A stretch of 64,000 nucleotides of DNA from Psammoneis japonica (lineage: Eukaryota), in NCBI GenBank assembly GCA_008632985.1, contig QPGO01000099.1, forward strand, positions 103,679 to 167,678, given 5' to 3'. Positions 19,201 to 64,000 of the stretch are shown here, in pieces; the stretch's first letter is position 1; each line of letters begins with the position of its first letter. The notes beneath the pieces are model-generated. The model worked only from the letters and a program-made list of their open reading frames with translations. It had not been told where the DNA came from and did not search any database. The position numbers and the translations under genes are program-made.

Positions 19201-19428
19201 TCGAGTCGAGTTAATCAAAACCTTCTGCCCACACCAGGTGAAAAAATGCCGATGGGCGTACTGCGAGCGAGCGAGAGATCGAGCGAGTCGTCGAAAAGAA
19301 ATGATGGCAAATTCGTGATGTTTGCACTAATGCGAACTGCGATGGCGCTTTCACTTCTCTTCATCGCTCGTCGGACCGCATCTTATTTCGCATGAATTCA
19401 ATCGGCATAAACACAGTCAAAAAATACC

Positions 19429-29870: not shown

Positions 29871-31249
29871 GCTTCACCATGGAAAACTCTTCTGGATGAC
29901 TGCCAATTCCCTTGTCATTCAATTTCCACCTTCTTGCAAAATCATGGGGCAAAGATGGGGGCAACAACAAAACCTCATTTGGCTCCTCTCCAATTCACCC
30001 AGATGGATGACAGTGTGACATGTGGTGATGAATGAGCCAAAACCTCCTGCAGCGCACATGTGGCAAAAAGGAGGAAGAAGAAGAGGAATCATGTTGGAGC
30101 TGCTGATGGGGCTGCTCAAAGTGCAACTCTCAAGCAATTGTTTGACAAGACTTGCCACAGACAGATGATCTGATTGTGACTTCCTTGTCACTTTCAATGC
30201 TGCTGTCGCTTTCAATGCAATCGCACTCCTCTTTTGTTTTTTGTTTGAAAAACCTTCTCAATTCTTGCATGACTCCTTGAAGAAGCCACAGCCTCTCTGT
30301 CACAGCATGCATCACAAAAGAGGGCACAAGCACAAGTGGTGTTCTTGTTCTCTGATGGTGACACAATGCAAGTGCCTGTTGCAAATGCAAGAGTTGATGT
30401 CATTGTTGACACGAGAGTTTCAGTGACCTCATCGCTGCTCCTGCTCCAACAAAATGCATGTGCAGCATTGGTGTCCGTGTGTGTTGACTCCACGGCAGTG
30501 GAGGTTTTGCTCTTGATGCAAGCACTGTGAGCCATGCGTTGTTGTCATGGTGGGTGTCTTGTTGTTGTTGCAGGTTGGATGTCACCTCTTGTCACTTGTC
30601 ACCCATGTCCGCAAGCAACAATCAGGCTGGAGGTGGCAGGGACAGGCGAAGAAGCAAAACACGTGCACACAAGTAGAGACCATTGTGCAGACAGACCGCA
30701 ACTGCAATTTGTTCCTCTTTTGCCTGGCAGCATGTGCAGCACCAACACACAGTTCTTGGTGCAGGTGCCGGCACAGCAAGCTTGTTGCTGCTGTCTAAAT
30801 GGCAGATGACTCTCTGTGTGGAGACCAGCACAGGAGCCAAAAAGATGTGCATCATGAAATCAGCACTGCTGTCATTGTTCTTGTGAGCCACATGGCTTGT
30901 GAGAGCAAAAAGCTGCATCACGACAGTGCACAGAACCAAGAGCACACACATGTCTGTGTGTGCAACAAACTGACACAGCATGCAACAAATTGTGCACCAC
31001 TGAAGTCCTGTTCAAATCCTTTTGCTCCCCATTTTGCTTGAGGAAGCCACCAAAACAGACTCAAGGTTGGACTGGCCAAAGGCTTCAGCAGAAGGTCAAA
31101 AAGCTCCAAAGCACAAGAGGACAGAGAAGAAGGCTCTGGATCTGGGGCAACCCCAGTGCTTGCTCAAAATGTCAGCAGGGTTGTGGGAGCCTTCAACAAA
31201 GTGGAGCTGTCAAGGAAACCCTGGCAATTGCCTCTCATGAACATGGTGG

Positions 31250-31640
31250 AATGAGAGGGCAGCTTGTTGCCCTCAAACATGCAACAACAAGTGTCATGGA
31301 TCAGGATGCCAAGGCCATGCAGCATGGTGTGCAAATTGATGATCTGCTCCATGCAACAATTCCTCACAGTGACGAACTTGGACCCACAAGTTGTGATCTC
31401 AATGCCAGCTTGTTTCTTGGAGAACCAATCGGCTGGAAACTTGCTCAGGAAATGGATGATGCCATTGATGGAACACACAGCAAGCATGCAATGAAATGAG
31501 TTTGCACCAACAGGATGAGCCACAGCGACAAACATGCCAAGAGAGGCTTGGGTGCATCTTTGGGAATCAGCTCCTTCACATCACTGCAAAAGTGCCATGT
31601 CACATCTTGGGCAAAGTGTCAGACATTGTGCTCATCTGGG
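31250..31640 (-). mobile_element. Ty1/copia (CoDi-like) retrotransposon RNase H remnant
   Basis: DVKELIPKDAPKPL...GIIHFLSKFPADWFSKKQAGIEITTCGSKFV...EQIINL.TML.GLG.LI....MFEGN matches the copia RNase H pattern W.SKKQ..VE..TYGSEF..MFGDN. Confidence 0.8.
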
Positions 31641-32147
31641 ACCTTGCATCACTGAACTGCACAAAGACTGCGCCACTTGATTTTCAAACCTCAAACCATG
31701 GCCCTGGCAAACCATGGCCCGGCGAACTGTGCCCCACACCATTGGTGAGCTGTGCTTGTGAACAATGATGACCTGGGCATTGAAGTGAATCAGGAGGCAA
31801 AATGCTGCTCAGCTGGGCATTCAAAATCAAAACAAGGGCTGAAAAACAACAAACAAATTGCACCTGCACCAATGGCTTTGCATTTCTGCCCCTGTTGATG
31901 TTGTCAATTGCAGAGATTGTGGCTGGAGAAGACACAATCTCAAAGGAACATGCAAGTTAAAAAGAGAATGGCAAGCAACATCCTGTGGGTTTGATGACAA
32001 CTGACACAGTGTTGGTGGCACAATGATGGCTGCAAACTGATGACTGCCACCAAAAAAAGGTCATGATTCATGCCAACAGCAAAAAAAAATCATTTCTGCA
32101 AAGCCAACGCTGCTCTGAAACACCGCACAGCAAGCAACATGCATGGT

Positions 32148-32590
32148 GTCTGTTTGCCTCCCATTTCAGTCACAGCTTGCCATCTGCCACCCAACAAATC
32201 CTCCATCCACTCTGACTTCAGTGCACGCCACTTCAGAACAACAACAACCCATGTTGTTTTGTTGCAACTGTCTCTGTGTTGCACTCTGTCCATCCATTGT
32301 TGTCAGCAGAACAATTGAGCTCATCCGAGGCCACCATCATTTTGACAAAGACAAGGTCATGAGCTCTGCCACTGCCAAGAACAGCAATGATGACAAAAAA
32401 ACCACTTCTGTGACTGCTGGCATTGACTTTGGTTGCAAATCAACAAAAGTGGCACTGTGCATCAATGAGGACAATGATGCCCCAGTTGAAATTGTGTGAA
32501 ATGAAGTGGGTGGGCACATGACTCCAACCTTGGTGGCCTTCATGTGGGGCAGATGCATTGCATGGGAGAAGCTGCAACAGCACACAAAGG
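32148..32590 (+). pseudogene. Hypermutated duplicate of the promoter and 5' end of the Hsp70-TPR gene (43311-43762)
   Basis: Direct nucleotide similarity; translation MSSATAKNS..TSVTAGIDFGCKSTKVALCI..VEIV*NEVGGHMTPTLV. Confidence 0.9.
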
Positions 32591-34759
32591 GCTGCACCCC
32601 GTTCTGGCTTCCAGCTTGTTGACAAGTGCTGCACACATGCTGCTGCACATTGGCCCAAGTTTCAGCATGGGGCAATGAGTGAATGCATGGCTGATGGCAA
32701 CTTGCTGAAGCAAAGCACTCTCCTGAACAATCCCAGCCACTGAGATCTTCCATGAAAGCTCTTGTGCCTGGATGATTAAAGATGCCATGCATCTTGTTCA
32801 CCAGCTGCACAAAGTGATTTTTGTCACAAATGTTGTGACAACTGAAGCTGAAGCCATTCTCCCAACAGCTGTTGCAATGCTGGAATTTCTTGGACATGGC
32901 CAATTCACAGTGCATTGCTCCTGCAAATTCAAGAATGAGTGCACCTCAAAGGAAGACCAGCTCTCCTTCATGCAACGCCTCTGCCATGCTGTCAAGAGCA
33001 CCAGGATTTTCAAAGAGCCTTGGGCTCAAACAGTGCTCAATGCCCTTGCTGCACTCAAGCTTGTGTTCTTGGGGGCAAGACTTTGGGACACACGCACCAT
33101 TGTCAAGAATGACCTGATCAGAGTCACAGGTTGCATCAACAGGCAAAATGATGTTTCTCCAAAAAGGGGTTCCTGCAGAGAGAAGCAAAGATCTCAAAGC
33201 TGCAAACATGTGCAGATGGATCTTTGCTCTTCATGCTGCACTCTGTTGTCATTCACATCCCTGCTTTCATGATGATGACAGCATGCCATGCAATGTTGAT
33301 GCTGTGACCCATGTGCATGTGTCTTTGCCAGTGGCTGCAAGCTGCAAACACCTTGTGGATGTGTGGCAACAAAAGGGAAACAACTTTCACTGACAAAGTG
33401 CAGACAAGCAGATGGTGTTTCTTTTGCACCACATGCATCACCCCCTTTCCAAACTCAAGAGTGACCAAGACATCTGCAACAGCTCCCCAGCTGGCTGCTG
33501 GCCCATCAAGTTCTCTGATTTGTGCCATGCTGCATGAAGCCAAACATCACCTCTCCCCTGCAGCTTTGCTTGCCAAAGTGCCATCAGATGACAATTGAAC
33601 ACAACACATTGGAAGAGTCTGTTCTTGATGTGTTGCTGCCCCCAGCATCTTTGCTGCCACTCTTGTTGCCAAGTGTGCATCTGCTGTGAGCCTTGCAACA
33701 AAACAGCTTTTTCTTTGAGGCTTTGGGCTCTTGCAACAGCTCCTCCCTGCTGTGAGCTCCAAAGAGATGACTGGAAGTTGGCAAATCATCTTCTTGGCAA
33801 GCTTGCCCAACAGAGCCCAAAATCCTTGAGATTGTTGCAAAACACCAGTGGTGTGTGCACTCTTTTGTTCTGCACCAGCAGCAGCAGCACTGAGGCAGAC
33901 ACAGCAGCACTTGAGTGTCCGTTCCTCTCTGCTCCACTTGCAAAGATGAGACAGCCCCAGAACAGTGTTGACATTGTCTCTCTTGCTTCTTTTCCCCTTT
34001 TGCTGTCCATGGATGATTGCAGTGCACCAGTTGATCATGAGCACTTTGAGTTGGCATGGGAGTTGCCCAGTGTGTGAGGCTGTCTCCTTGACCACATGCC
34101 AGATGTCCCCAATGAATGAAGCTCACCCACAACCACACAGTCTCTTACTTTTTTGTGCTCCAGGCAAAGCAAAACTCTCTTTTCTCATCTTCAATGACTT
34201 GCAGAGCCAAACCAGATAAGAACTTTTCAGCATTTTTTGTTGGCAGCTCACATGAGCCCATCAGCTGCTGGCCTTTGTCAACTTTGAGCTTTCTTCAATG
34301 GCGCTGGTGGACTGCTGGTGCAATTTCCACAAATCACATTTTTCTGTGGCATGCACACAACAGGCAATTCCAGAAAAAACAATGATGAGAAAAGGGCAAA
34401 AGTCAATCAAATGTGCCCCATCCAGAAAACAACAAAGCAACACACACAAGCAAAAATGCAGAAGAAGCACATTTCTGAATTTCTTTTGGTGCTCACTTCA
34501 TGCAGCCAAAGACAATGGCCCAGTTTCCATGGACTTCCTGGTCATGAAACTTGTGCAACTCAAACATGCCTCATTCCCCACCATGGCTCACAAGCTCAGG
34601 CATGATCTCTCCTTGCTTGGCTGTGCAGACATGTTCATCAAACAGAAAAGCAGCTTTGCACACTGCAAGCCATCAGATCAAGCTGCTGCAACCTCACTCT
34701 CAAGCTGCTGCAACCTTTGGCAGTGCGGGCTCTGGCCAGAGCACGTGGGGCCCTGACAG

Positions 34760-35303
34760 CTGGAGAAGAGAGGAGTGGGTTTAATTGGACCACACTGGTT
34801 TGGAACGCTCTGTGTGCATGCTTGGACTTGTGCTCTGGGGATCACATCACTTCATCAAGCTCGCAACCAAGATGGGTCCAATCACACCAGCAACCTGTGT
34901 TGCCTTTACAACTCTGACTGTTGTGAGTCACCTGGGTGCATCATGTGGCGATCCTGGCATTGTCGGAGATGCAAAACCCCGCCATGTCACTCTCTGAATG
35001 TGGACAATTGGAGATGGTTTGGCTTGTGCAGTGTGTGTCAGTCACCCGATGGAGCCCATTGTCCAGACTGTATAAGGTTACGCCGCCGGGTATGATCATC
35101 ACTGTGTGTGGATGGGCACGTGCACTGGACGAAAGAACTTTCGAGCCTCTAAGATTTTCAACTTGTCGCGGTTGTTTTATTTGATTTACTGCATTGTGTG
35201 GGTCTCCATTGTGGCCCTAAGCGTATTCTCTGAGAAGAATAGTACTCACGATGACACAAGTGGCAATACAAACAGTACGGAAGGAGAACTGTCAAATGAT
35301 TGA
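34760..35303 (+). pseudogene. DHHC palmitoyl acyltransferase fragment
   Basis: CGDPGIV...WRW.GLCSV.QSPDGAHCPDC, then after a frameshift GYDHHCVWMGTCTGRKNFR followed by a TM segment. Confidence 0.8.
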
Positions 35304-36830: not shown

Positions 36831-37336
36831 GAGAGCTCAGCCGTCGTTCTTTCTGTGCTGCTGTTTTTGTTTCGCAACAAGGACCAGCGTAAAGTAAAGT
36901 CTAACGAGCTCAGTATCGTCAAGGGCGTGGCGAAATGCGAAATCTGTACAAATACTGTACGCGAAAATCAGAGAGGTTCGACATGTTTCGTTTGCAGGTA
37001 TTCAGCAACGTTGCAAAGATTTGTTTTGTTCGGAATCAGCGGCTGATTTGATTGCCAAAATGATGCACACGGGGAGTATCTTGGGGTTTACTCAGTAATT
37101 TGGGCAAAATATATTTCGATGGACTAGTAGCATCGGAGTTGTTATCATTCAGGGCTAGAACACGCATATTATGGTATACACCTGGTCTAGCCAAGCCGAC
37201 GCGTGCGAGTTGTTAAAGGACGAGGTTTAGAGTTGGTTCTAGTAGATACTATCTCGCTTCACAAATTTCAGCCAGTCCTTTCATTCTGTAAAACAGAACC
37301 ACCGCCGAGACCCAGTAGGTTCCTGCATTGCAGAGA

Positions 37337-40060
37337 CTACTCTCTAGCGAAAACAACGCCAAGATCCAGCAGTCGACTCTTCCGGCTATTCTTTAGTTTT
37401 CCAGCCTTCCATGCTTGCTTTTGATCGCTTAACCAAACTCCAAGATTCATCCCATCCTCTTTGTGACCCCGCAGCACCCTACAATGGCCCTCACGCGCCA
37501 CAAATCGTCCAAGAAGAGAAAACATAGTCTCCCATCGCTCAGCCCGAACGTCCCACTCCACTCCAGCCTTCTCCAGTCGTTCCTGTCTAGAAGCGTTCAG
37601 TTTCCCTTTCCTTTTATCTCTCGTTTGGGTGCCCAACCACCTTCCAAGGTTCTCCCCATCCTCTTTGTGACCCTGCAGTACCCTGCAATGGCCCTCCCGT
37701 TCGTTGAATTGCTCGAGAAGTGAAAACATAGTCTCCCATTGGTTTTCAAACACGCCCCACTCCACTCCAGCCTCCTCGAGTTTTTCTTCTTTGACAATGT
37801 CAAGCTTCCCGAGCTTATATTTTAGTCGTTGGTTGCCCAACCAACATCCAAGGGCAAAGCCATCCTCAACGTATCTATTGGGAACATTACAATTGCCTTC
37901 TCTCTCCAAGTAAACCAAGAGTAGGCTGTAAGCGCGATTCCATTTAAAATCGTTCACGTTCCACTCGACTCCCGCCTTCTTGAGCGCTTGTTGACGAGAA
38001 ATATCCAGCATCCCATTCTTTTTGGCCTGCCGTTGTTTGCTTAACCAATGCCCCAAATTCATCCCCTCCTCTTTGTGGCTATAAGGAACTTCGCAATTCC
38101 CTTCGCGGTCTCTATACACCAAGAGCAAATCGTACATGCGATTCCAGGAACTCTTGTCCTTGTATTCTCTAATGGCGCGGTTCATGATGTCATTTTTCAT
38201 TTCAAATGACATTGAATCGGGAAGCATGAAGGAATCAAGGACACGAGGAGGGTACTCGTCTTCCTTCAAAGGCCTTCCTAGTCTGTCGCTCTCTTCAATC
38301 ACAAACAAGACATCCTGACGTAACTCGGGATCCAGACCAACCATGGCCTCAAAAGCAGTGGTAAAAGTTTCGTATCCGTTGGTATCCTCAGTCAATTCCT
38401 CATCAGAAGCAATTGGAACGGGAACAAGAACGTAACCACGGTTTTTACCGAACGCTTTCCGGCTTACACGTCCAATCATTTGACGTGCCAGAACTGAACT
38501 CCGAACGGGATCGGCCATTACAACCAACTCCCAATCCGCCTCGTCAACACCTGTCGCCAGTACTTTGCAGTTCGCAACGATAGATTTCGATGCAAACCTT
38601 GCTTCTTGTAGCACATGTTCCCGATTTACTGCAGACATTTTGGGACTGCCACAAACAACAAATGTAGATATGTCGTCCTTCAACGCCGTTTCAGTCGAGT
38701 CCACAAAAGCCCGTGCTCGAGCATTGGTAGAGTGGAACGACACAGCACGGCTTACATTTAACTTATAGAAAGCCGCTTCGATTGCAAAAGGCAGCAAGGT
38801 ATCTTTTGAGAGCTGGCTGGAATCGATATGTGCGTGTTCACTGACCTCGTCTTGATCCACAACACATAGTGTAATGGGGACTGTAATGTTTTGCTCCACG
38901 CTTTCTCTCAATGTCCGTCGTTCGATGCACGGTCCAAACAGCGCTTTATCGACAAAGCTCCTAATGCCCGAGAGGCAACGAGTGGTTTCTGCTTCCCTTT
39001 TCGGCAAGAGCGTTTGCGCGCCGTACTTGTCAAGCTTGGATCCCAGAACGGTGATTTGTTTCGGAGACTGTGTGTACCGACGAGGAGTTGCTGTAAGGAA
39101 GAGACGGTAGTCAACTGGAAGAAACGAATCATAGAGACCATATCCAAATAGCCTCCCTGCTCCTTCCATCTCGTGTGCTTCGTCAAAAATACCAAAGGAA
39201 ATGCTGCCTCCAATCGCTTGAAGAGCCTCTCCAACCCGTGGTAGAGAGTTGTAAGTGCAGGCAATGACCCGTAGCTCACTCTCATGAGAAGAGAGAAAAG
39301 CTTTTATCTCGTCAACTGATGTAGTGCAAGCCTCGGATCGACTGGTTTGGCTAGCCACAATCAATCTCGAGTGCGAAATGTCGGCAGCAAGTCCAGAACC
39401 ATCCAAGAAATCTAGCACTTGATCGACCAAGATGAGTTTCGGTGTTACGTATATCGCTGTCTGAACTTTTGATAGATCGGGACCTACTCCTTCTCGTGCT
39501 AACCGCGAAAGTGTTTCCAAGGCCAACAACGTTTTACCCCAACCCGGTGGAAGCTGGACGTTTGCTCTGCGGAAATAATTTTCTTCTCTCGAAAAACGAG
39601 AGATCTCTCCGGATAAGCCATTTGAATTGTCCCCATTTCCTCCACTTGAAGTTCTCTCAGCTCCCTTGTAATGCTCTATGATGGACTCTATTATGCTATC
39701 GTGACGACCATCTAGATCTTGGAAGCCGCCTTGACTCATGAGTGACGTACTAGTTCCTGGGGCGGCACTTTCTCTTCTGCCACTAACTTTCGGAGGAGTT
39801 GGCAGTTCTTGATTCTCAAGCATCATAACAGCACTTTTTTCGTAATTCTCTGAAAGGTACACTCTTTGATCATCTGCGATTGTCATCTCAGCGTGTTGGT
39901 CTATGATTGTGTCGTTGAATATCTCTAATGTAGCTGATTTCATCAGGTAAAAACATTCTCTGCTCTTTGGTAAGCCAAACAGTGCCGGTTGAAAAGGAAA
40001 AGAGACGGATAACTGCTGAAACAGCAGAGCTACAAATAGATTTTTACAAAGGCTATTCAT
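37337..40060 (-). CDS. SF2 DExH helicase (ResIII-like + helicase C) with four C-terminal helicase-associated (HA) repeats and an N-terminal signal-peptide-like segment
   Basis: Intact 907-aa ORF: LPPGWGKT, FDEAH, LTATP, LATGVD, QMIGR; repeats W..MF.LL..F..REG.C.VP..H...G..LG.WL..QR. Confidence 0.92.
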   Translation of the reverse strand: MNSLCKNLFVALLFQQLSVSFPFQPALFGLPKSRECFYLMKSATLEIFNDTIIDQHAEMTIADDQRVYLSENYEKSAVMMLENQELPTPPKVSGRRESAAPGTSTSLMSQGGFQDLDGRHDSIIESIIEHYKGAERTSSGGNGDNSNGLSGEISRFSREENYFRRANVQLPPGWGKTLLALETLSRLAREGVGPDLSKVQTAIYVTPKLILVDQVLDFLDGSGLAADISHSRLIVASQTSRSEACTTSVDEIKAFLSSHESELRVIACTYNSLPRVGEALQAIGGSISFGIFDEAHEMEGAGRLFGYGLYDSFLPVDYRLFLTATPRRYTQSPKQITVLGSKLDKYGAQTLLPKREAETTRCLSGIRSFVDKALFGPCIERRTLRESVEQNITVPITLCVVDQDEVSEHAHIDSSQLSKDTLLPFAIEAAFYKLNVSRAVSFHSTNARARAFVDSTETALKDDISTFVVCGSPKMSAVNREHVLQEARFASKSIVANCKVLATGVDEADWELVVMADPVRSSVLARQMIGRVSRKAFGKNRGYVLVPVPIASDEELTEDTNGYETFTTAFEAMVGLDPELRQDVLFVIEESDRLGRPLKEDEYPPRVLDSFMLPDSMSFEMKNDIMNRAIREYKDKSSWNRMYDLLLVYRDREGNCEVPYSHKEEGMNLGHWLSKQRQAKKNGMLDISRQQALKKAGVEWNVNDFKWNRAYSLLLVYLEREGNCNVPNRYVEDGFALGCWLGNQRLKYKLGKLDIVKEEKLEEAGVEWGVFENQWETMFSLLEQFNEREGHCRVLQGHKEDGENLGRWLGTQTRDKRKGKLNASRQERLEKAGVEWDVRAERWETMFSLLGRFVAREGHCRVLRGHKEDGMNLGVWLSDQKQAWKAGKLKNSRKSRLLDLGVVFARE

Positions 40061-40479
40061 AATCGAGAATACCTGAATAGCAAGAAGCCAAAAAAGATGC
40101 CAACATTACGCAATTGTGATGTAGGGCCCTATGCATGATGCGATCGATGCATGCGATGAATGCGTAGGGCCCTATGTATGTGTTCTGGGCCGCGTCGCAT
40201 GTCCGTCATCCGTCATACTTGAAAGCTTGCCTTGGTTTGGCAAGGTGTCGGAGCGACGCAGTAGAGTGAGGCATCCGAGCGAACGTAAGGGTGAGGCCTG
40301 GGAGCATTGGTTGGTGCCGAGGTGACTGGAGTAACTGGAGAAGGAATAAGGTCGAGGCAACCTCCCAACTTCAAACTGGGACAGACGAACCCTTTGTTGC
40401 TGGATCATCCCAATTGCGAACATGCGAACCCCGCTCGATAGATTACCCAATTCTTAAAAATGAGACGCCTTTCCCAGTA

Positions 40480-41664: not shown

Positions 41665-42400
41665 CAAACTAACTGTTTTAATTCTTTAAAACAGAAACAC
41701 AGACGAGACCAAGAAAATCCCCCCCATTGCAGAGACTGCTTTCTACCAAAAACAATGCCAAGATCCAGCAGTCGATTCATGCGGCTGTTCTCCAGCTTTC
41801 CAGCCTCCCATGCTTGCTTTTGATTGCCCATCCAAACTCCAAGTCTCTTTCCATTTTCAATGTGTCTTTGATGCACCCTGCAATGTCCCTCCCATTTCAT
41901 GAATTGTTTGAGAATTGAAAGCATTGTCTCCCATTGATCTTTGAAAACATTCCACTCAATTCCAGCATCCTCCAGGCATCTCTGTCAAGAAGCGTCCAGC
42001 TCCCCTTTCCTTTCAGCCATCCGTTGGTCTCTCAACCAATTTCCAAGGTTGATCCCATCTCCTTTGTGACCCTGTGGCACCCTGCAATGTCCCTCTCTCT
42101 TCTTGAATTGGTTGAGAAGTGAAAACACTATCTCCCATTGATCTTTCAAAATGTCCAACTCAATTCCAGCATTCTCCAATCATCTCTGTCAAGAAGCATC
42201 CAGCTCCCCTTTCCATTTGGCCATCCATTGGTCTTTCAACCAAGGTCCAAGGTTTTGACCCCATCTTCTTTGTGACCACTTAACACCCTGCAATGTCCCT
42301 CCAGTTTCTTGAACTGTTCAAGAAGTGAAAACCCAGTCTCCCATTGATTTTCAAACACACCCCACTCAACTCCAGCCCCCTTGAGTTTTTCTTCTTTGAT
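41665..42400 (-). pseudogene. HA-repeat 3' remnant of the helicase gene, with homologous downstream flank
   Basis: HA repeats ending RLLDLGIVF; the flank matches 37262-37340; hypermutated. Confidence 0.85.
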
Positions 42401-43532
42401 GATCTTGGAAACTGCACAATGGTCAAGCCACCATGTCTGCACATTGCATTGCTTCCAGATCTGTGTGGATGTGGGCAATTGGCAGTGTGCAATGGGGATC
42501 CTGCATTGTGGGTGCAGCCAACAACGATGCTGAGTTCCGAGCATTTTTGACCACAGTGAAGAGAGTGCCTTGTGATGGGAGCAATTGTGCAAGTCCGTCA
42601 CCAGCACCACTTGAAGAAGCCAGAGCACAAGCAGCACCCTCCCAGCTCTGGGCAGGGCCTCATGCTGCTGAGCCTGTGATGTGTTGAGATTTTTTTGTCA
42701 TGCGCCACATGTTGCACACAAGCACATTTCTGTGTGACTTTGGGGCAGAGCTTTGGTGTGCTGGTGTTGTTTGCGGTGTGCAGCAGCACAGTTGTTGGGT
42801 GCACCAGCCCACCAAGCAGCTGCTTTGTCACATTTTTGCAAAGCATCACTCTTCTTTTTGGATGTCTTGAGAGTGACACAGGGAAGGCAGATTTTCAAAA
42901 ACTTCAAGCGGGTCGGCAGGTGCAAAGAGTGTGCGCCACACACACAGCTGAACTTGGTCTTACGTCAAAGATGAGCACACACACTGATGCCAGAGTGTGG
43001 GCTGCACCAGAGCTTGCATGTGGAGCTTGCAGGTCCAGCATGCTGCACGGAGCCCTGCCCAGGTCTTGAGATCACAAAGAGCCACAAAATCATCTCAAGT
43101 TCTTGGCTCGCACCCAGCTGCACTTGCAAAGACACCAGCAACGCTCTCTGCTTTCATTTGCCGATGGCCTTGTAGGAGAAGACCCCAGCAAAAAGATGTT
43201 TGGTTGTGAAGGTCAAGGAAAAGTAGAGGCACTGTGGCAACAAGCACCATCATCCAATCCTCACTGGTGCGATCTGCGGTGTCTCGTCTGTCTCTTGAGT
43301 GCAAATGAAGTCTGCTTGCCTCCCGTTTCAGTCACGGCTCGCTATCCGCCACCCAATAAATCCTCCATCCAATCCGTCCTATGGATGCACCGGTATTTCA
43401 GCATGCCACTTCAGCACACGACGTACACAAGTCCGTCTTTACTTTCTCTGTTGCACTCTGTCCATTCGTTTTTCACTTGAACATATTGAAACTCGTCCGA
43501 GGTCACAATCGTTTTGATAAAGACAAAAGATC

Positions 43533-45668: not shown

Positions 45669-46274
45669 AGAGAGTAAAAAAAAAAAAAAGAGAAAAAAGC
45701 TTTAGTCATTTCCTCTAGACCGGGGGGAGGTGTACAGTAGTCCTTGTGACATGTGGGAGACAGTGCGCTGCTAAGAAGTAACAATTAGAATATGTGTAAA
45801 GTACGTGTTGGAAATTTTCAACATTGCGTTGCCAGGGTTTCTTCCAGCTTTGACGGTTGCTGCATGTAATTGACCTGCGTCGTCCTGCGTTGGGCGTTGG
45901 TCATTGAGCTCTCATCAAAGCTCAACGAATTCTTCCTCTAATTGGAAAAAATCATCGCATCCAACACTTTTATTTGTGATCATTGATTGACATTTGCACA
46001 CTCATGTTCTCATTCGTGGCCCAGCAATTTGCAATCGCGGCCCACTCTCAAAGCATTTCAGGCATCCAACGCATCCAATGCTTTCGCACGACAGTTTCAG
46101 AGGCGTACACAGTAGCTGCTGGCATGTCTCTACGTGTACGCAAATTTATTACCACAAAATCCTGTAAAATAATTTCCGTTGTGACGCGACTGTGACGTTG
46201 CATTTTTCTCCCTCCGACGAAAAAATTTAGCATACAAAACACCGAAGCCATTTTTCTGAAACCAAAAAATCACC

Positions 46275-49200
46275 ATGGCCACCACCTCAGAACGAAATGC
46301 CGTCGCAGCCGACGAGTCATCAGTGCCTACTTGCCCCCTTCCAGAGAACGCTTCCAAACACCCTGAAGTGTCTTCTGATAAAAGGGGGCAAGTAGAGCTC
46401 AAGGCTCTGGAGAGCAAATGTGGCTCAGAAGTGCGCTCGCTTCTTGCGGAGTTTTTCCGCAGCATGTCGAGCAACAAGCCTTGGTTCTTTGCTGTCAAAG
46501 AGCCTCTTGTTCAGATGGAGAGCACCAGCAATGGAGAGGACATCGAAAAAGAGGCATTGAAGCCAGTGCCTCTCATGGGCACTGCTTTGTGTCTTCCTTG
46601 TTCGGGCGCATGAAAACGATCTGTTTGTCACCATCCTCGCCATTGCCGGCCTCGTCGAACAAAAGGGCAAGCACCTCAATGTCAAAAGAGATGTGTGGCA
46701 GGACTTTTTTAATGATCACAACCTCAGCAATGCAATTGTTGTCAAGAAAATCACCCCTGACACTGATGGCAAGAAGGTTCATTTCACTCGTGTCGGAGGC
46801 AAGTTTGGCAGCCTTGAAATTGTGAAACAGTTTGCCAAGGATCCCAAGGAACGGTTGTTGAAACCAAAGTGTCAGATGACCAAGCTTCGGTCCAGTTTTG
46901 TTGATGGGATCAACAGCCTTCTCCTGGACATTCTCTCAGATCATTGCATGAGCAACATGACAGATGGCGGTTTGGAAGGCGATGACATGAACAATGCTGC
47001 TGATGCCAAGCAAGACGCAGGTGTGACGGAAGAGGAGAAGATGGAACAAGAAGAAGCCAAAGACGGGATGGAGGAATCAGAAGAGCCAGTTGAAGCATCT
47101 GAAGAAACAAGCGAGGAAGTTGGACAGAAGGAACCACTGGAGTTCGAGAAGACAATCGACATTGACGAGAATCTTTGTCCTCAACTCTCTGGACTGTCGA
47201 GCGGCATCAAGCGATGGGAGCCATCTAGATTGGTTCACGACATGGTCAAGCTGCATGAAGCTGCATCCATGGAGATCACTTGTGGAGATCGGCATCCAAT
47301 GGTTTTGGCGCCAATCCCAAGGACTGCGAAGAAGAGCTGCAAGAACTTCCGTGACAGTTGCGCTGGGAGAAAATGGCTTCACGTCATTTTAAGACACATT
47401 GGCGGAGGTGACAAGACAGTTGGGACAGAAGAAGCCGAGTCATTGGGGGCTGAGTGGGTGTGTCAATGGCCAGCTACAAAGTGTGAAGCAGATTTCATGG
47501 CAGCATCCAAGGCTTCCGGTCTTCCCGTGACGCACAGAATGGACAGAATCGCAGCTGCTGCCATGTGGAGCGCTGCAAACGTCACATCAACCAGCAGCGA
47601 GTCATCCCAAGACACTTGCGGCACCAGTTTGGCAAGAGAATTGTTGTGCCGGAACGGGATGTGCAAGCCCTGGGAGATGGACATGTGCCTGCGTCGCATG
47701 GATCACATGACCACAAAAAGAACAAGAAGAGCGACGAGCACAGCGACGACACCAAAAACGTTGAAAAGATCAATTGCTGCACAAGGTCCATTCTAGATTG
47801 CATTTCCACTGAAGTGAATGGCGCACTTCAAACTCAGGTGTCATCTGAGGTTGACAACGACAAGGCATTGAAGAGCTGCCCCACCCGCAATGGCCTCGGC
47901 TGGAATCTCATCTGTGGCGGAGATCATGGGAAAAAAGAGTCCAGTGCGGTGGGCAAGCTCCACACGCACAGTGCTGAACACCGGAGAGCTCTGCTGGAGA
48001 AGAGTTGGCATGAGCTCAACACAAAACAAACAGATGCGGGAGGGTGCCGCATCTTCAAGTGTGCAAGCATCCAGTGCAAGAAAGACAACTCCGACATTCT
48101 TGCTGACACCATCTCAGCAACAATTGACAAGGACATTGAGATGTTGCTCTCACAACAGTCAGTTGGAATCAAGCAAGGAGGCGACAGCAGCAATGTCCAA
48201 TCCCTCTGTGTCCAGAAAGGCGCAACAAACATGAGGGTTGAGAAACAAAACCAAAGCAACGTGATGGCCTTTGACGCAGAGGGTGATGGATTTGCTGCCA
48301 CCATGCATGAACCACTTGCCTTGGACGGTGACAAGTGTGAGATGATGCTCGACGTCCCACAATTTACAATGTGCGTCATGGGTGACCTTGCATTCCATGC
48401 CAATGTTCTGGGCAAACCAAACTCGAGCGGCTGTTGGTGCCACCTCTGCAAACTGAACCACAAAGAGTGGAACGTAGCTGGGCATGAGAAAGGAGAGAAG
48501 TGGACTGTTGAGGAAATGAAGGCAGCATTGCAAGAGCACCTAAATTCCGATCAGGTCGACGCCATCAAGGGGGCACGCGAGAAAATGCACCACACAAGCA
48601 TCTCACCTCAGCTTTGCATTTGCCCGCCACTTCACATGGAAACAGGGTTGGCAAATGAAGGCTGGGACGACCTTCAAGAGTGGATTGATGAAGAGCTGGG
48701 GGAGATTGACGCCGAGGAAGTGCAGGCTCGGACAGCCGTTGTCACCGCCAGCACCATGATGCAAGCTGCCATGGAGAAACAACGCAAGCAGAGGGAAACA
48801 GCAGAAGTGGAGGTGAAGGATTTGAAACTCACCAAGAAGACACCAGTGAGGCAGTGCAAAGCCGCAAAGAAGGCTGCCAATGGCGAGTTGGAAGCCGACT
48901 TGAAAGATCGCATCAAGGCAACTGAGAGCGCAATTGAGAGCAAGGAAAAAGAGATTAGAGAAGCAATGGATGATTCCAAGAAAAAGCAAGCTTGCTTGAG
49001 GAAATGTAAAGAACGGGTTGCCAAGCTGCGGAAGGCTCGTGGGTGGCCCATTGATGGCATCGCCGCTCAAACTGAGGCAATTCTGAAACGGTGCGGCACA
49101 AAGCGTGAGGCGTGCCATGGCGGGGATTTCAACGGTGGATCCTGCAGGAAAATTGGGGAAAACAGCCAGGAGACAATGTCAGAGATGACTGAAGCCATTC

Positions 49201-49754
49201 TGGAGGCGAGAAAGAAACAATCAAGTCTCACCGATGAGCAAGTCAAAGAAAAATGCAGTGAATGTGGCACCCTCTTCGGTCTGTTGGACTCACTCTTTGC
49301 TTCCATTCAGGTGGTTCACCCCACTGAAGAAGAGATTGCCACAACAGAGGAAACAACAAATCGCACTGAAGTCTTGTGGCATGGCTTGGGGACATCCATC
49401 ACAACAAAAATGCATTTGGTGTTGGATCATTTGGCAGATCAAATGCACGAACATGATGGGATCGGCAACAAGGACGAAAACCATGTCGAGGTTGAGCACC
49501 AACACTCTCACAAAGCCAACATCAGAACCCAACTAATCAAGAGACATGATGCACAGAAAAACGCCCAGATCAAGTTCCGCCAGATTGCCAAAGATGCTTC
49601 AGCAGCAGAGAAACGGGAGGAGGTGACGCAGGCCTCGAAGCAAAAATTCAAGGACTGCTCTCGCAAGACCGGGCATTTGGAGGCATCAAAGAAGAAGAAG
49701 GCCATCAAGGATGAGAAGAGGGATCATTTTAGAGGTGGGGGTCAATGCATGTAA
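46275..49754 (+). mobile_element. Chapaev/Transib-type (RAG1-related) DDE transposase, frameshifted and hypermutated
   Basis: GGDHG, GDLAF..VLG..CxxC, PPLH..G, HGGDFNG, ITTKMH..DH, ENHVE.EH. Split over ORFs 46275..46613, 46693..47796 and 47565..49754. Confidence 0.72.
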
Positions 49755-49980
49755 ATTGGCTCACCTGATTGTTGCTTTACGTGTGCCACAAACGAATGGC
49801 AGAAAAGTGAGCGTCGTGTGCAAAGGAAAAACGGCATTGGGCAAAAAAGTGAGCGTCGGTGCGTTGGATGCAATTTTTTGAAATTGTGCAGAAATGTACG
49901 TCAGTTTTCTGGCATGTCGAGTTTTGCACCAGACCTGCTGAGCACGCTGCGACCCACGAGCTGAAGCTGTCGTGTTCGCT

Positions 49981-51181
49981 GGGCGATCCAGGAAACTTCA
50001 AAGGCTTCAAAAGATTCCATGTTCCATGACATTTCTGATGTTTTTTCTACAAACGGAGCTCACAACTTGTTGGCGCCATTTAAATGAGGGGCAACAGACA
50101 AAAGATCGAACAAACAAGTTGTGTTTTCGAAGTTGTTTGAAGTGTTCGAATGTTGTTCAAAGTGTTCAAACTTTTGTTGCAAATGTGTTGCCCTGCTGTC
50201 ATTTGGATTAAAAGAAAAAATGTTTGAACTTTCATTGTCGCCCTTTTGGTCACTTCAAACTGATTCAAACAAAGTTCGAACTTGTTTGAACAAGTTCGAA
50301 GTGTTCGAAGTGCATGGCAGTGCTGTGTGATGTGTCTGTTTGCACAAACTGCATTTTCGTTCGCACTGCCCGGCACGCGACACTTGTCCCACCGTGCTTC
50401 ACAACAATGGCACCAAAACTTGGCCGCCAATTGCCCAAAACCACTCATTTGGATGCTGACAAGCAATGCATGGGTCCTCCATCAACCGCTTGGATTGACA
50501 ATGCCATGGTTCATCACCTCAAAACCAATTTTGTTGTCTGTAGAACCGCTCCTCTGTTGTCATCAAGACAAACCACATAAAACCCTGTGCAAACGAAAAA
50601 TGACAAGCTTCCATTGATGACATCAGTGCAAAAATGGCTCACATGATGTCATTGCAATGCCCTGCACAATCGCTCATGGGTTGATTGACAAGTTGGGGTC
50701 ATCTCTCACAGCAGCGTCAACATGATGTCGCATCGGAAGAGGCGGCATTTCGGTCATGGCAACATGGTTTTGTGCTGATTTGTGCAAGCGCTGTTTTGAC
50801 CACGCATCCAAAAAACACTCATGTGCAGAAGCAACACCACGCAGTGTGGCCCAAAGTTAATGACATGGTGTTTCCTTGTCAACATTTGCCCATCGCTTGC
50901 TGCAGAAGGCAGACAAATCAGAAAGCACAAATCATGTTCAACAATTTAAGTCATGTGAGACTTTGAAAATGTTTGAAGTGCTTCAAAGTGTTTGAACACT
51001 TCAAACAAGTTCAAAAACTTTGAACAAAGTCTGAGGCAATGACAAGGGCAACAGAGACAGAAACCTCAAAATGTTGGAAGCTTTTGTGTCCATCCTGCAC
51101 GAGGTCCACACAGGGATGTGTTGACAGGAGTTGGGAATCTTCTGTTTCTTTTTCAAAACTTTGAAGTTTCCTGGATCGCCC
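49981..51181. mobile_element. 1.2-kb non-autonomous DNA transposon with perfect 23-bp TIRs and subterminal TTCGAA/TTTGAA repeats
   Basis: GGGCGATCCAGGAAACTTCAAAG at 49981-50003 and its exact reverse complement at 51159-51181; clusters of GTTCGAA/GTTTGAA/TTCAAA at 50120-50310 and 50960-51025. Confidence 0.8.
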
Positions 51182-52509
51182 TGCAACTGCAGCCATTGAT
51201 TGATGTTTGCATGTTCATTTTCTCAATCACGGCCCAGCAATTCTGCAAGACTGGCAGGCAATGCAGAGAGTTCAAGTTTGGATGTGACTGTTTGAGGGGC
51301 CATTCAATGCTGACTCACATGGTGGGCTTGCCATTTCAACCAATTGAAAGCACTGGCTGTGAGAGGCATCCTCAGAGCACATTTGTTTCACTTGGAGTGC
51401 TGCTCTCTGTTGTCTGCAGGTGGCTGCTGCCATTTCAACATGCCCCATTGAATCCGCGACAAAGATTGGCTTTGTGCAGGATGCTGGGCACTTTGTGGAA
51501 AGGCGCAATGATGAGTTTAGGACAAAGCACTGTTTCACGCGTGCGCACAAGCTGCACGGCATTTGTCTTGGGGGGCAAATGCGAAGAAACGGCAACTCAT
51601 GGAATGGCGTCCTCATGCAAACCTGCAAAATCTGTGACAAAAGTGGCTGTGAAACAATGCATGCTAGAGTGTTGATTTAGAAGTGGCACTGCATTTGTTG
51701 GGAAGACTTTGGAACAGCACAAAGGCGCACACACTGCAGCAGGTTGCTGGGGTCGATCGCATGAGTTTCAGCGTTAAACTGCATGCTCTGTTGGTGCACC
51801 TGACTGTGTGCTGAGGGGAGGCAACACTCACTCACAACAGCCATGTGCTGCCTCAAGACAATGATGATTTGACACGTTCTTCCAAATGCTCGATTTGAGT
51901 GAGCTGTGCAGACAAAGTCAAGCTTTCGGTCTCTTTGAACGTGGCATCGGCGTGCAATGAATGGAAAAGATGGGACACCCCCGCACATTCGCAGGATCGA
52001 GTGAGTTTAGCCTGTGCTGCAAGAGGATTGGCATTTGCAGCTAGACACTAGCATCTACGCTGGAAAGGGGAAACAGAGCACCGTGCATTGGAGGCACAGC
52101 AATCTTTTTTCGAGCAGTGTGCAGTGTCCGACGAAGTTTGAACCTCGACCAAGTTTTTGATTGTTGCTGCACAGATGCTGCTGGTATTTTGACGAGCTCC
52201 ACTCAGACCACAAGATTAGACCAACGCCATTAAGAAAACGCCAATGTGTAGGGACTATACCTTGCAAAGAGAGGTTAAGCAATGATCCATGATGCGGCTG
52301 TGATTTGTGATTCTTGACTCGTGGCTCGTGGTGATCTTTTTTCTGTCCGTGACCCGCCTGAAGATCGTTTCGCGGTTCATCGATCATCGACTCGCATCGA
52401 CGCTGATGTCGACTGTCGAATGTCGAAGCTTTCACACAAGAGGGTAATACAACACACAGTATAAAACAACACGTCCAGCCTCCTCATCAGTCTTATTGTT
52501 GCTTCCATC

Positions 52510-61307: not shown

Positions 61308-61525
61308 GATGATGCGATTCCAGCGACATGGATAGTGCGGGCATTCAGTGTAAAGAAAGAAGAAAATGAGGCGCATCGCATGCACAAGGATGACGGATGA
61401 CGGACATGCGACGCGGCCCATAACACATGCATTGAAATCATGCATAACGCATGCATCGATCGCATCATGCTGGCGTACAGTGTTGGCATCTTTTTTGGCT
61501 TCTTGCTATTCAGTTCTTCTCGACT

Positions 61526-64000
61526 ATGAATAGCCTTTGTAAATATCTATTTGTAGCTCTGCTGTTTCAGCAGTTATGCGTCTCTTTTCCTTTTCAACCG
61601 GCACTGTTTGGCTTACCAAAGAGCAGAGATTGTTTTCACCTGATGAAATCAGCTACATTAGAGATATTCAACGACACAATCATAGACCAACACGCTGAGA
61701 TGACAATCGCAGATGATCAAAGAGTGTACCTTTCAGAGAATTACGGAAAAAGGGCTGTTATGATGCTTGAGAATCAAGAACTGCCAACTCCTCCGAAAAT
61801 TAGTGATAGAGGAGAAAGTGCCGCCCCTGGAACTAGTACGTCACTCATGAGTCAAGGCGGCTTCCAAGATCTAGATGGTCGTCACGATAGCATAATAGAG
61901 TCCATCATACAGCATTACAAGGGAGGTGAGAGTACTTCAGGTGGAGGAAACGGGGACAATTCAAATGGCTTATCCGGAGAGATATCTCGTTTTTCGAGAG
62001 AAGAAAATTATTTCCGCAGAGCAAACGTCCAGCTTCCACCGGGTTGGGGTAAAACGTTGTTGGCCTTGGAAACACTTTCGCGGTTAGCACGAGAAAGAGT
62101 AGGTCCCGATCGATCAAAAGTTCAGTGAGTGACATGCGCAACACTGAAACTCATCTTGGTCGATCAAGTGCTGGATTTCTCGGATGGCTCTGGACTTGTT
62201 GCCGACATTTCGCACTCGAGATTGATTGTGGCCAGTCAGACAAGCCGCACCGAGGCTTGCACCACATTGGTTGACAAGTCTGCAGCTTTTCTTCCCACTC
62301 ATGAGAGTGAGCTGCGGTTCATTGCCTGCGCTTGCAACTCTCTGCCACGGGTTGGAGAGGCTCTTCAAGCGATTGGAGGCAGCATTTCCTTTGGTATTTT
62401 TGACGAAGCACACGAGATGGAAGGAGCAGGGAGGCTATTTGGATACGGTCTCTATGATTCGTTTCTTCCAGTCGACTACCGTCTCTTCCTTACAGCAACT
62501 CCTCGTCGGTACACACAGTCTCCGAAACAAATCACCGTTCTGGGATCCAAGCTTGACAAGTACGGCGCGCAAACACTCTTGCCGAAAAGGGAAGCAGAAA
62601 CCACTCGTTGCCTCTCGGGCATTAGGAGCTTTGTCGATGAAGCGCTCTTTGGACCGTGCATCGAACGACGGACGTTGATAGAAAGCGTGGAGCAAAACAT
62701 TACAGTCCCCATTACACTATGTGTTGTGGATCAAGACGAGGTCAGTGAACACGCACATATCGATTCCAGCCAGCTCTCAAAAGATACCTTGCTGCCTTTT
62801 GCAATCGAAGCGGCTTTCTATAAGTTAAATGTAAGCCGTGCTGTGTCGTTCCACTCTACCAATGCTCGAGCACGGGCTTTTGTGGACTCGACTGAAACGG
62901 CGTTGAAGGACGACATATCTACATTTGTTGTTTGTGGCAGTCCCAAAATGTCTGCAGTAAATCGGGAACATGTGCTACAAGAAGCCAGGTTTGCATCGAA
63001 ATCTATCGTTGCGAACTGCAAAGTACTGGCGACAGGTGTTGACGAGGCGGATTGGGAGTTGGTTGTAATGGCCGATCCCGTTCGGAGTTCAGTTCTGGCA
63101 CGTCAAATGATTGGACGTGTAAGCCGGAAAGCGTTCGGAAAAAACCGTGGTTACGTTCTTGTTCCCATTCCAATTGCTTCTGATGAGGAATTGACCGAGG
63201 ATACCAACGGATACGAAACTTTTACCACTGCTTTTGAGGCCATGGTTGGTCTGGATCCCGAGTTACGTCAGGATGTCTTGTTTGTGATTGAAGAGAGCGA
63301 CAGGCTAGGAAGGCCTTTGAAGGAAGACGAGTACCCTCCTCGTGTCCTCAATTCCTTCATGCTTCCCGATTTGTTGTCCTTTGAAACGAAAAAAGACATC
63401 ATGAACCGCGCCATTAGAGAATACAAGGACAAGAGTTCCTGGGATCGCATGTACGATTTGCTCTTGAAGTATAGAGACCGCGAAGGCAGTTGCAAAGTTC
63501 CTTCTAGGCACAAAGAAGAGGGGATGAGTTTGGGGCATTGGTTAAGCAGACAACGGCAGGCCAAAAAGAATGGGATGCTGGATATTTCTCGTCAACAAGC
63601 GCTCAAGAAGGTGGGAGTCGAGTGGAACGTGTACGATGATAAATGGAATCGCGCTTACAGCCTACTCTTGGTTTACCTGGAGAGAGAAGGCAATTGTAAT
63701 GTTCCCAGTAAATACGTTGAGGATGGCTTTGCCCTTGGACGTTGGTTGAGCAACCAACGACTAAAATATAAGCTCGGGAAGCTTGACATTGTCAAAGAAG
63801 AAAAACTCGAGGAGGCTGGAGTGGAGTGGGACGTGTGGGAAAACCAATGGGAGACTATGTTTTCACTTCTCGAGCAATTCAACGAACGGGAGGGCCATTG
63901 TAGGGTACTGTTTGGTCACGAAGAGGATGGGGAGAACCTTGGAAGGTGGTTGGACACCCAAAGGAAAGCTAAAAGGAAAGGGACAATGGACGCTTCCCGA
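61526..64000 (+). pseudogene. Near-identical inverted copy of the 37337-40060 helicase-HA gene with a premature TGA at 62126; runs off the window
   Basis: Close match to the reverse complement of 37570-40215, including upstream DNA (61385-61525); the stop lies within a mutated patch. Confidence 0.9.

Follow-up and report, generated by a model that had tools for sequence, protein, structure and literature searches.

The locus described here lies in a 64,000-nt stretch of DNA from the diatom Psammoneis japonica (contig QPGO01000099.1), referred to below as the window, and comprises a decayed transposase gene (46275-49754) embedded in a tract, or island, from which the dinucleotide TA has almost disappeared. 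Within the 3480 nt of the gene region we counted 16 TA, an observed/expected (o/e) ratio of 0.08, compared with at least 124 TA (median 146) in each of 432 island-free 3480-nt windows from the same 64 kb. The CG dinucleotide was also reduced (n = 127, o/e 0.58), and CA (o/e 1.48) and TG (o/e 1.60) were in excess; in the background outside islands, TA o/e was 0.5-0.75 and CG o/e about 1.0. A preliminary description, made from the letters of this DNA, had given 46275..49754 as the affected element. That region is indeed TA-poor, but the TA-poor tract is larger (approximately 46234-52030), with edges sharp to within tens of bases, and the adjoining intergenic DNA at 45669-46233 has normal TA density.

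The transposase gene was followed with tblastn, using the 1168-aa homologue P0002. Residues 88-135 of P0002 matched 46434-46604 (frame 3), residues 129-186 matched 46630-46812 (frame 1), residues 423-541 matched 47230-47598 (frame 1) and residues 531-1146 matched 47565-49658 (frame 3). Judged from these sequence alignments, the region is one gene of about 1160 codons in shifting frames. The frameshift near 46590-46630, which sets the first 112 codons apart, was also present in a second set of sequencing reads (run X1). At 47581, X1 carried an extra T that joins the open reading frames (ORFs) 46693-47796 and 47565-49754 into one frame of about 1040 codons, so that this frameshift is either an allelic difference or an indel of the long-read assembly. 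The only common stop codon left in the island was TGA (n = 141). The probability of a 755-codon stretch without TGA was about 8e-9, indicating that the frame goes back to a genuine gene rather than arising from base composition. Changes from TA to TG or CA delete TAA and TAG in every frame and create no stop, and the frame therefore stays open; the preliminary description had said that such changes rarely create stops. It had also held that the element was disabled mainly by missense with the ORF remaining long. The long ORF was borne out, but missense does not act alone: the gene copy is dead through many missense changes plus at least one frameshift.

No tyrosine is encoded in any of the gene's three ORFs (112, 367 and 729 aa). 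In contrast, none of the 105 homologues longer than 400 aa was free of Tyr, and their mean Tyr content of 2.46% corresponds to about 18 residues expected in 729 aa (probability of none, about 1e-8). In the conserved motif EAYHGGDFNG of the homologues, the window ORF reads EACHGGDFNG; the residue preceding HGGD is Tyr in 58 of the 70 family proteins carrying the motif and Cys in the window copy. At all nine columns in which P0001, a 753-aa homologue, and P0002 both have Tyr, the window encodes Cys (six columns, TGC or TGT) or His (three columns, CAT or CAC). Since Tyr codons are TAY, every tyrosine was turned into Cys (TGY) or His (CAY). The loss of tyrosine is due to a regional TpA-to-TpG/CpA transition process. 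Tyr-majority columns, counted to spot other hypermutated family members, were too few for this purpose (1 and 4). The counts agree with the preliminary description, which had reported the two Tyr-free ORFs (47565..49754 and 46693..47796; the 112-aa piece behaves likewise), about 15 TA in 3.4 kb and Cys or His at expected Tyr positions (ACHGGDFNG). By its own terms it would have failed if intact, active homologues were Tyr-free too or if CpG were as depleted as TpA, and neither is the case (0/105 homologues; o/e 0.58 versus 0.08).

Table 1. Features of the window, with coordinates in nucleotides of the 64-kb stretch
Feature	Position	Strand	Evidence or remarks
TA-depleted island, ~5.8 kb	46234..52030	.	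30 TA (o/e 0.08), CG o/e 0.58, TG/CA o/e ~1.6
Decayed transposase gene, ~1160 codons, no Tyr codon	46275..49754	+	tblastn; collinear with 1168-aa homologue P0002
N-terminal piece, frame 3, 112 aa	46275..46613	+	Matches P0002 residues 88-135
Frameshift 1, frame 3 to frame 1	46590..46630	+	No gap in covering X1 contig
Frame-1 piece: remaining N-terminal domain, acidic linker, pre-core helices	46630..47598	+	P0002 residues 129-186, 423-541
ORF of 367 aa, 0 Tyr	46693..47796	+	
Frameshift 2, frame 1 to frame 3, 1-nt deficit in window	47581..47582	+	X1 contig has extra T
729-aa ORF with catalytic core	47565..49754	+	Alignment; retained catalytic and zinc residues
D120, D274, C292, C295 retained in 729-aa ORF	47922, 48384, 48438, 48447	+	
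H357, H617, H622, E638/E642 retained in 729-aa ORF	48633, 49413, 49428, 49476/49488	+	
Predicted coiled-coil hairpin, ~110 aa, between LH..G helix and A(Y)HGGD motif	48711..49041	+	Model
TA-poor tail, no recognisable coding sequence	49755..52030	.	0 Pfam matches in 8 ORFs of at least 90 aa
Nested repeat resembling a miniature inverted-repeat transposable element (MITE), 1.2 kb	49978..51184	.	35-nt terminal inverted repeats (TIRs), 89% complementary; subterminal GTTYGAA-type repeats
Island, TA-poor part of HA-domain gene copy	2745..3945	.	TA o/e 0.12, CG o/e 0.63
Island, HA-gene pseudogene and unidentified DNA	13201..19250	.	TA o/e 0.05, CG o/e 0.26
Island, FG-GAP fragments and copy of Hsp70-TPR gene 5' end	26860..35070	.	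TA o/e 0.03, CG o/e 0.19
Island, HA-domain fragments	41690..43340	.	TA o/e 0.08, CG o/e 0.25
TA-normal HA-domain (PF03457) gene, unmutated reference	37279..40221	-	107 TA in 2632 nt; 838-aa ORF
Second TA-normal HA-domain gene	61385..63996	+	94% identical to 37590-40221; 94 TA; ORFs of 622 and 226 aa

Direction, context and regionality of the TpA loss

The window contains five TA-poor islands with sharp edges, together covering 22.9 of its 64 kb, with TA o/e of 0.03-0.12, CG o/e of 0.19-0.63 and TG/CA o/e of 1.3-2.0. The islands hold the transposon, the MITE-like repeat and pseudogene copies. Self-comparison of the window paired the TA-poor segments 2611-3649, 13190-14620, 15201-15728, 41677-42176 and 32148-32590 with paralogous genes of normal TA content. 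The HA-domain gene is present as two inverted copies, 37279-40221 and 61385-63996 (94% identical over 2.6 kb), and as at least three decayed, TA-erased copies at 2.6-3.9, 13.2-15.7 and 41.7-42.4 kb.

We determined the direction of change by aligning the island copies with TA-normal references, namely the two HA-domain genes (37.3-40.2 and 61.4-64 kb) and, for the Hsp70-TPR gene, its 5' end. Over the five pairs pooled, the normal copies contained 130 TA, of which 14 were kept in the island copies, 49 had become CA, 40 had become TG and 27 read otherwise. CA or TG was thus the fate of 89/130 TA; CG was not among the four commonest fates, which fits TA sites being mutated once and the target then destroyed, as in real mutation. 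The reverse change, from TG or CA to TA, was seen at 6 of 520 sites. At the 192 CG of the normal copies, 49 were kept, 54 read TG and 46 read CA; retention of the remaining 14 dinucleotides was 51-75%. When two reference copies were used in a three-way alignment, the picture was similar (8/32 TA kept, 13 changed to CA, 9 to TG). The segment 32148-32590 is 74% identical to 43310-43762, where the Hsp70-TPR gene has its first codons and the region upstream of them, and it kept 0/16 TA and 1/23 CG, indicating that host promoter and gene fragments are mutated once duplicated into an island.

Both strands were about equally affected (49 changes to CA versus 40 to TG), and this bears on whether the changes could have been made in RNA. 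Adenosine-to-inosine editing of element transcripts or double-stranded RNA, followed by copying into DNA, would suit the preference of ADAR/ADAT-type editing for a U before the edited A, as described in the available text of a preprint on Bigelowiella natans (10.64898/2026.01.13.699255). We nevertheless regard such a route as very improbable: the element is a DDE DNA transposon without reverse transcriptase, the strands are hit about equally at the Tyr columns as well (6 Cys versus 3 His), and mutation also extends to non-transcribed flanks upstream of genes (32148-32590 versus 43310-43762).

To follow the relation between TA and CpG loss, we examined the youngest paralogue pair, in which 9/34 TA and 27/48 CG were kept and the other dinucleotides were kept at 0.79. 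After subtraction of the background, the loss rates of TA and CG in this pair differed about threefold. In the transposase region CpG was about 40% down relative to the background o/e near 1.0. All five islands have lost both TA and CpG, and the TA-poorer islands are also the CpG-poorer ones. The preliminary description had proposed that TA loss precedes CpG decay and is decoupled from it, with CpG remaining common. The faster rate agrees with TA loss coming first, but the joint loss in all five islands does not agree with decoupling; likewise CpG is far less depleted than TpA, yet is not untouched. The simplest reading of this analysis is that the islands would be CpG-methylated, silenced DNA, with the TpA process working in the same domains. 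In the diatom Phaeodactylum tricornutum, about 6% of the genome is reported as methylated in the available text of PMC6604790.

The islands could also be viewed as old, unconstrained DNA that has reached the equilibrium of a genome-wide TpA and CpG mutation bias, with genes and their flanks keeping TA only by selection. The presence of pseudogenes and dead repeats in the islands, the rise of both TA and CpG loss with overall paralogue divergence, and a background TA o/e already at 0.5-0.75 would be in keeping with passive decay of this kind. However, the island edges are sharp to tens of bases, and the intergenic DNA directly adjoining (45669-46233) keeps normal TA. Moreover, the youngest pair has lost 74% of its TA while keeping 79% of other dinucleotides, a TA-specific rate far above background. 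Mutation accumulation in P. tricornutum, in the text available to us, showed a GC-to-AT bias with contexts CG, CC and TG, not TA (PMC6604790), and that text reports no TpA process. We therefore consider passive decay a poor and rather unlikely account. Three further explanations were rejected without a dedicated test: GC-biased gene conversion, which lacks dinucleotide specificity; selection against TA in dead DNA; and ultraviolet TpA photoproducts, which are not regional.

A mechanism induced by repetition, similar to fungal repeat-induced point mutation (RIP) with the opposite chemistry, would recognise duplicates by homology and mutate both at TpA. Every island does contain repeated DNA (HA copies, an Hsp70 fragment, a transposon with a deleted paralogue, a MITE-like repeat), and the island edge at 13201 coincides with a homology edge at 13190. 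In opposition to this, the two HA genes of 2.6 kb, though 94% identical, still have 107 and 94 TA, and the differences between them are ordinary, with TA versus TG/CA in 16/136. In addition, the hypermutated giant-virus insert of B. natans is described in the available preprint text as single-copy (10.64898/2026.01.13.699255). Recognition by homology is accordingly an explanation that we hold unlikely, though it deserves mention.

The loss of TA depended strongly on neighbouring bases. Among the 78 TA surviving in islands, 3 were RTAY, 36 mixed and 39 YTAR, versus 525, 902 and 260, respectively, among 1687 background TA (chi-square p = 2e-16). The resulting fold depletion was 98 for RTAY, 14 for mixed and 3.7 for YTAR, and none of the 16 TA remaining in the transposase gene was RTAY. 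The corresponding log survival values (-4.58, -2.64 and -1.31) fitted a model with additive contributions of the two strands, where a following pyrimidine speeds the loss of an A about 3.5-fold relative to a following purine. The paralogue pairs gave the same preference: events by the 3' neighbour of the mutated A were 43/80 for C, 21/59 for T, 12/56 for A and 12/63 for G (3' pyrimidine versus purine, Fisher p = 1.3e-5). A strand-wise trinucleotide preference of this kind would be the expectation for an enzyme that flips single bases. The order TAC > TAT > TAR resembles the U-A-C of the tRNA anticodon loop that is recognised by TadA/ADAT.

The base that is hit in a T:A pair is indistinguishable, and 5'-TAY on one strand is 5'-RTA on the other. 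The T of 5'-RTA-3' could therefore be the base modified or oxidised, to a 5-hydroxymethyl- or 5-formyl-uracil type that pairs with G and gives T to C. Bases of the 5-hydroxymethyl- and 5-formyl-uracil type are mutagenic. The preference for U/T-A is, however, one known for ADAT/TadA and ADAR enzymes according to the available text of the preprint (10.64898/2026.01.13.699255), and we judge thymine-side chemistry to be improbable.

The X1 reads reproduced the TA-poor sequence. Contigs of X1 covered the island at a depth of 51-61 and the flanks at 56-66, and in one contig (record 2) 17 differences were found in 1852 nt, 3 of which restore TA. Overall, X1 differed from the window at 35/5037 nt (0.7%) in the island and at 0/1187 and 5/1336 nt in the flanks, so that differences in the island were about three times those in the flanks, and were mostly at TA and CG steps. 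Among the 40 of 82 differences that were listed, 27 were TA or CG versus TG/CA, with the derived-looking state in the window at 14 and in X1 at 13. This suggests that both decay processes went on after the X1 and window sequences separated.

The agreement with X1 and the even split in direction argue against an artefact in which base modifications were misread by a long-read base-caller and TA or CG written as TG or CA. At least one 1-nt indel of the window (47581) is not common to X1, as might be expected of base-calling trouble. On the other hand, frameshifts occur in the islands too, the island copies diverge from their paralogues by 14-33%, and the double change from TA to CG, which independent miscalls on each strand would be expected to produce, is not among the commonest outcomes. 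An artefact therefore appears barely credible.

Fold, clade and surroundings of the transposase

The 729-aa ORF belongs to a large protein family. A search of a library of 1.8 billion proteins found 875 cluster representatives at E <= 1e-3, and P0001 matched the ORF with 31% identity over 98% of the query (E 5e-117). Full-length relatives have 1148-1173 aa and lie on contigs of about 4.4-4.6 kb. In Pfam, neither the window ORFs nor 55 homologues matched RAG1, EnSpm or any other transposase family (E <= 0.1), in a Pfam copy whose content of split RAG1 models was left unchecked; the profile search against RAG1 suggested in the preliminary description thus gave no RAG1 match among the 55 homologues. 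The only Pfam matches were coiled-coil noise and a weak DUF1280 (P0024, E 0.0046). In one of the nearest Atlas clusters (rank 2), 12% of members also had DUF1280 (PF06918), which may derive from this transposase family as a fragment or a domesticated relative. A 64-sequence profile run against PDB sequences returned coiled-coil proteins only.

The structure gave a clear result. The AlphaFold2 model of P0001, built from the 64-sequence alignment, had a mean pLDDT of 92.2 and a pTM of 0.88. With Foldseek against PDB, the model matched RAG1 first (6cim_A, E 2.1e-12, probability 1.00), followed by amphioxus RAGL (6b40_A, 7e-8) and Helicoverpa Transib (6pqx_A, 7e-5). VIA-align, run independently of Foldseek over 48,161 chains, gave mouse RAG1 a Z of 20.0 (469 residues aligned, root-mean-square deviation 4.4), BbRAGL 18.9 and HzTransib 12.4; the next transposase was the P element at 9.9. 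Residues 18-718 of the model superposed on RAG1 453-1008. A model of the full-length homologue P0184 (pLDDT 80) scored Z 19.4 with RAG1, 17.9 with DNA-bound HzTransib (6pqx) and 17.9 with BbRAGL, indicating that the family is no closer to RAG1 than to Transib. Protein language-model features agreed with the fold (cnidarian clusters 0.96, RAG1 clusters 0.91-0.94). In the viral fold library BFVD no meaningful match was found (TM-scores normalised to the query <= 0.16).

The conserved pattern of the family, in P0001 numbering, includes G-x-D-H-G (D143), G-D-L-A-F (D306), L-H388 and A-Y-H-G-G-D. The pair C324-x2-C327 sits 18 residues past D306, H388 is invariant, and H645-x4-H650 sits 17-21 residues ahead of E667/E671. 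In the 64 sequences D306, C324, C327, H388, H645, H650 and E667/E671 were invariant or near-invariant (D306 invariant, E667/E671 at least 90% conserved), and every catalytic and zinc-binding residue was kept in the window copy. We take the mouse RAG1 counterparts to be D600, D708, C727, C730, H937, H942 and E962. If these residues are right, the spacings are near those of mouse RAG1 once the 110-residue hairpin is discounted. This hairpin, residues 412-522 of the P0001 model, matched only generic hairpins and has no counterpart in solved RAG1 or Transib structures.

The CMCT clade unites EnSpm/CACTA, Mirage, Chapaev and Transib as well as Plavaka, ESTA and Lanisha with RAG1, and is defined by a D-D-E, C(2)C, H(4)H pattern in the available text of Kojima 2025 (PMC12730594). 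The family described here has in common with it the D-D-E triad, the C(2)C that follows the second D, an additional conserved H, and the H(4)H about 20 residues before E. It shares the fold of the RAG1/RAGL/Transib core from the dimerisation and DNA-binding domain to the C-terminal domain, and the RAG1-core fold including the zinc-binding modules is present in the family model. It differs by the predicted hairpin of about 110 aa in the zinc-binding region and by a Cys-poor N-terminus of about 400 aa. In a composition test of five full-length homologues, the N-terminal 330-520 residues contained 2-10 Cys and 0-1 CxxC. According to the available text of Kapitonov and Koonin 2015 (PMC4411706), the Chapaev N-terminus has a Chapa zinc finger, with or without RING. 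The Cys-poor N-terminus argues against the Chapa and RING fingers that mark Chapaev and RAG1 N-termini.

On the evidence of the models, the protein is predicted to be a member of the CMCT clade with a RAG1/Transib core fold. The placement stops at the level of the clade because of the lack of a Pfam RAG1 or EnSpm match, the coiled-coil-only profile, the Cys-poor N-terminus, and the absence from the island of a RAG2-like ORF and of bracketing TIRs. The preliminary description had called the element Chapaev/Transib-like and RAG1-related; the RAG1/Transib fold supports this (Z 19-20), and the missing Pfam RAG1 match confines it to clade rank. By sequence the family did not qualify as Transib/RAGL in the strict sense, since no similarity to the RAG1 core or Transib was found in the Pfam and PDB profile searches. 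The stretch upstream of the catalytic core proved to be the transposase's own N-terminus, and no RAG2-like Kelch partner was found in the tail (0 Pfam matches in 8 ORFs of at least 90 aa, 49755-52025). CMCT elements are further characterised by termini 5'-CA..TG-3' and a target-site duplication of 2-5 bp; no pair of inverted repeats was found to bracket the island, and among metagenome contigs a search for relatives of the locus gave 388 pattern matches, 0 of them confirmed.

In the P0184 model, residues 63-244 near the N-terminus are confidently predicted (pLDDT 70-94) as an alpha/beta domain, with a disordered linker behind it (243-297), and a counterpart of this domain is encoded at approximately 46434-46812 in the window. 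One X1 contig, at single-copy depth, runs from 46648 to 49509 across 36 letters of other sequence, and matches 49509-49755 at about 88%. Such a joint would fit a non-autonomous paralogue of the transposon, internally deleted and located elsewhere in the genome.

In the tail, the TIRs of the MITE-like repeat lie at 49978-50012 and 51150-51184, and its termini are not CA..TG. The depth of X1 was 250-480 (4-8x) at 49806-50339 and 51141-51407, which hold the arms of the repeat, compared with about 55 for single-copy DNA, indicating that the repeat is multi-copy in the genome. A direct repeat of 55 nt (82% identical) occurs at 45981-46034, upstream of the transposase, and at 51194-51248 in the tail; X1 contigs that join or loop between both sites suggest a dispersed short repeat. 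Rfam gave 0 matches over 45000-53000. Upstream, the Hsp70-TPR gene (43533-45668) had its named best matches in Seminavis robusta (52%), then Cylindrotheca, Ditylum and Nitzschia, and the nearest Atlas cluster of its protein was Bacillariophyta (0.99). The host, named a stramenopile in the preliminary description, is by these neighbours more exactly a diatom. At the start of the window, 1-825 had 62.5% GC, TA o/e 0.21 and CpG o/e 0.93, unlike the TA-erased islands, and is probably GC-rich coding sequence.

Proposed mechanism and relation to known systems

With high probability, in our view, the locus is a dead copy of a DNA-transposon transposase in a diatom island that was altered by two dinucleotide-specific transition processes. 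The first process converts TpA to TpG or CpA, an A:T to G:C change on either strand with the strongest action at 5'-TAY-3', and has removed about 90% of TA. The second, slower process converts CpG to TpG or CpA, the signature of 5-methylcytosine deamination, and about 40% of CpG is lost here. The TpA process may be an active, locally targeted DNA editing that works on silenced or methylated repeat DNA. The leading candidate for the agent would be an adenine deaminase of ADAT2/TadA type, as proposed for B. natans, by which adenine in DNA would be deaminated to inosine and read as G.

Several observations weigh against this reading. The two 94%-identical HA genes keep about 100 TA each, so that duplication alone is no trigger. 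In the copy at 2611-3649, TA depletion begins about 130 nt inside the homologous block, and island edges are thus not always repeat edges. Neither TIRs nor a target-site duplication (TSD) were found bracketing the island, which leaves the protein as the sole basis for the transposon nature of the element. Only RAG1, RAGL and Transib have solved structures among CMCT, so that a top match to RAG1 indicates no special closeness. Finally, X1 perhaps came from the assembly's own culture, which limits its independence.

The closest known case is B. natans, for which we cite the available text of Mettrop et al. (10.64898/2026.01.13.699255). In mutation-accumulation lines of this species, A to G or T to C accounted for 230/231 mutations across two integrated viral regions, every GC-biased mutation was at TpA, and the rate was about 1000x background. 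Coding sequences low in TpA were enriched in DDE and reverse-transcriptase domains, and an ADAT2-like deaminase was proposed as the agent. Both cases thus have in common A:T to G:C change at TpA, giving TpG or CpA by strand, confinement to regions, and long-term low TpA with high CpA and TpG in transposon-like coding sequences. They differ in host, B. natans being a chlorarachniophyte (rhizarian) and the host here a diatom (stramenopile), and in targets, which in that text are giant-virus and virophage inserts and in the diatom comprise a DNA transposon together with a MITE-like repeat and duplicates of host genes. Depletion in the B. natans viral insert is given as Rho 0.45, compared with a near-complete o/e of 0.03-0.12 here. 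The CpG loss seen in the islands is unmentioned in the B. natans text by word search, and the 3'-pyrimidine preference found here might also be visible in its Table S2. The B. natans rates were measured directly as de novo mutations, whereas the process here was read from sequence comparison.

Fungal RIP in ascomycetes likewise produces regional, dinucleotide-specific transitions in repeats and transposons and leaves surrounding genes untouched. However, RIP converts CpA to TpA and raises TA, the reverse of the change from TpA to CpA/TpG seen here, and it acts on all duplicates that are similar enough, whereas here two genes with 94% identity were spared. Fungal RIP itself was ruled out by this opposite direction (TpA o/e 0.03-0.12, CpA/TpG o/e 1.3-2.0).

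A transposase of RAG1 fold in a photosynthetic stramenopile has a precedent in AanRAGL of the pelagophyte Aureococcus anophagefferens (Tao et al. 2022, PMC9435367), an element with a RAG2-like partner, TIRs that are asymmetric and a TSD of 5 bp. The sequence of AanRAGL can be recognised as RAG1-like, whereas the present family is far more divergent, with 10-13% identity in structural alignments; AanRAGL has a RAG2-like gene, and no RAG2-like ORF was found in the island. The available supplement text of that paper names no diatom by word search. The preliminary description had seen interest for RAG1 ancestry in a stramenopile family of this kind; the RAG1-fold core sustains that interest, with the qualification that RAG1-like elements were already published from one stramenopile, Aureococcus (PMC9435367). 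The family is a large one without a Pfam model, its RAG1/Transib-like core is visible only via structure, and it widens the known diversity around RAG1 ancestry.

Full-text literature searches returned no report of TpA depletion or hypermutation in diatoms. For TpA hypermutation of invading DNA the single report so far is a 2026 preprint on one chlorarachniophyte, and the diatom adds a new major lineage. We offer as a tentative proposal, to which we give less than even weight, that diatoms may possess an active 5'-TAY-3' adenine-deaminating defence beside CpG methylation, directed at silenced repeats, transposons and junk duplicates. Such a defence could be ancient in the stramenopiles, alveolates and rhizarians (SAR) and could be a mirror image of RIP that recruited a tRNA deaminase. 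For genome annotation, the islands are a warning, since they give long, stop-poor, Tyr-free ORFs that resemble genes. The 5'-TAY preference is a testable handle for finding the enzyme. If the proposal is true, the defence would inactivate elements via missense while their ORFs stay open. The signature in a diatom suggests a widespread, overlooked eukaryotic genome defence.

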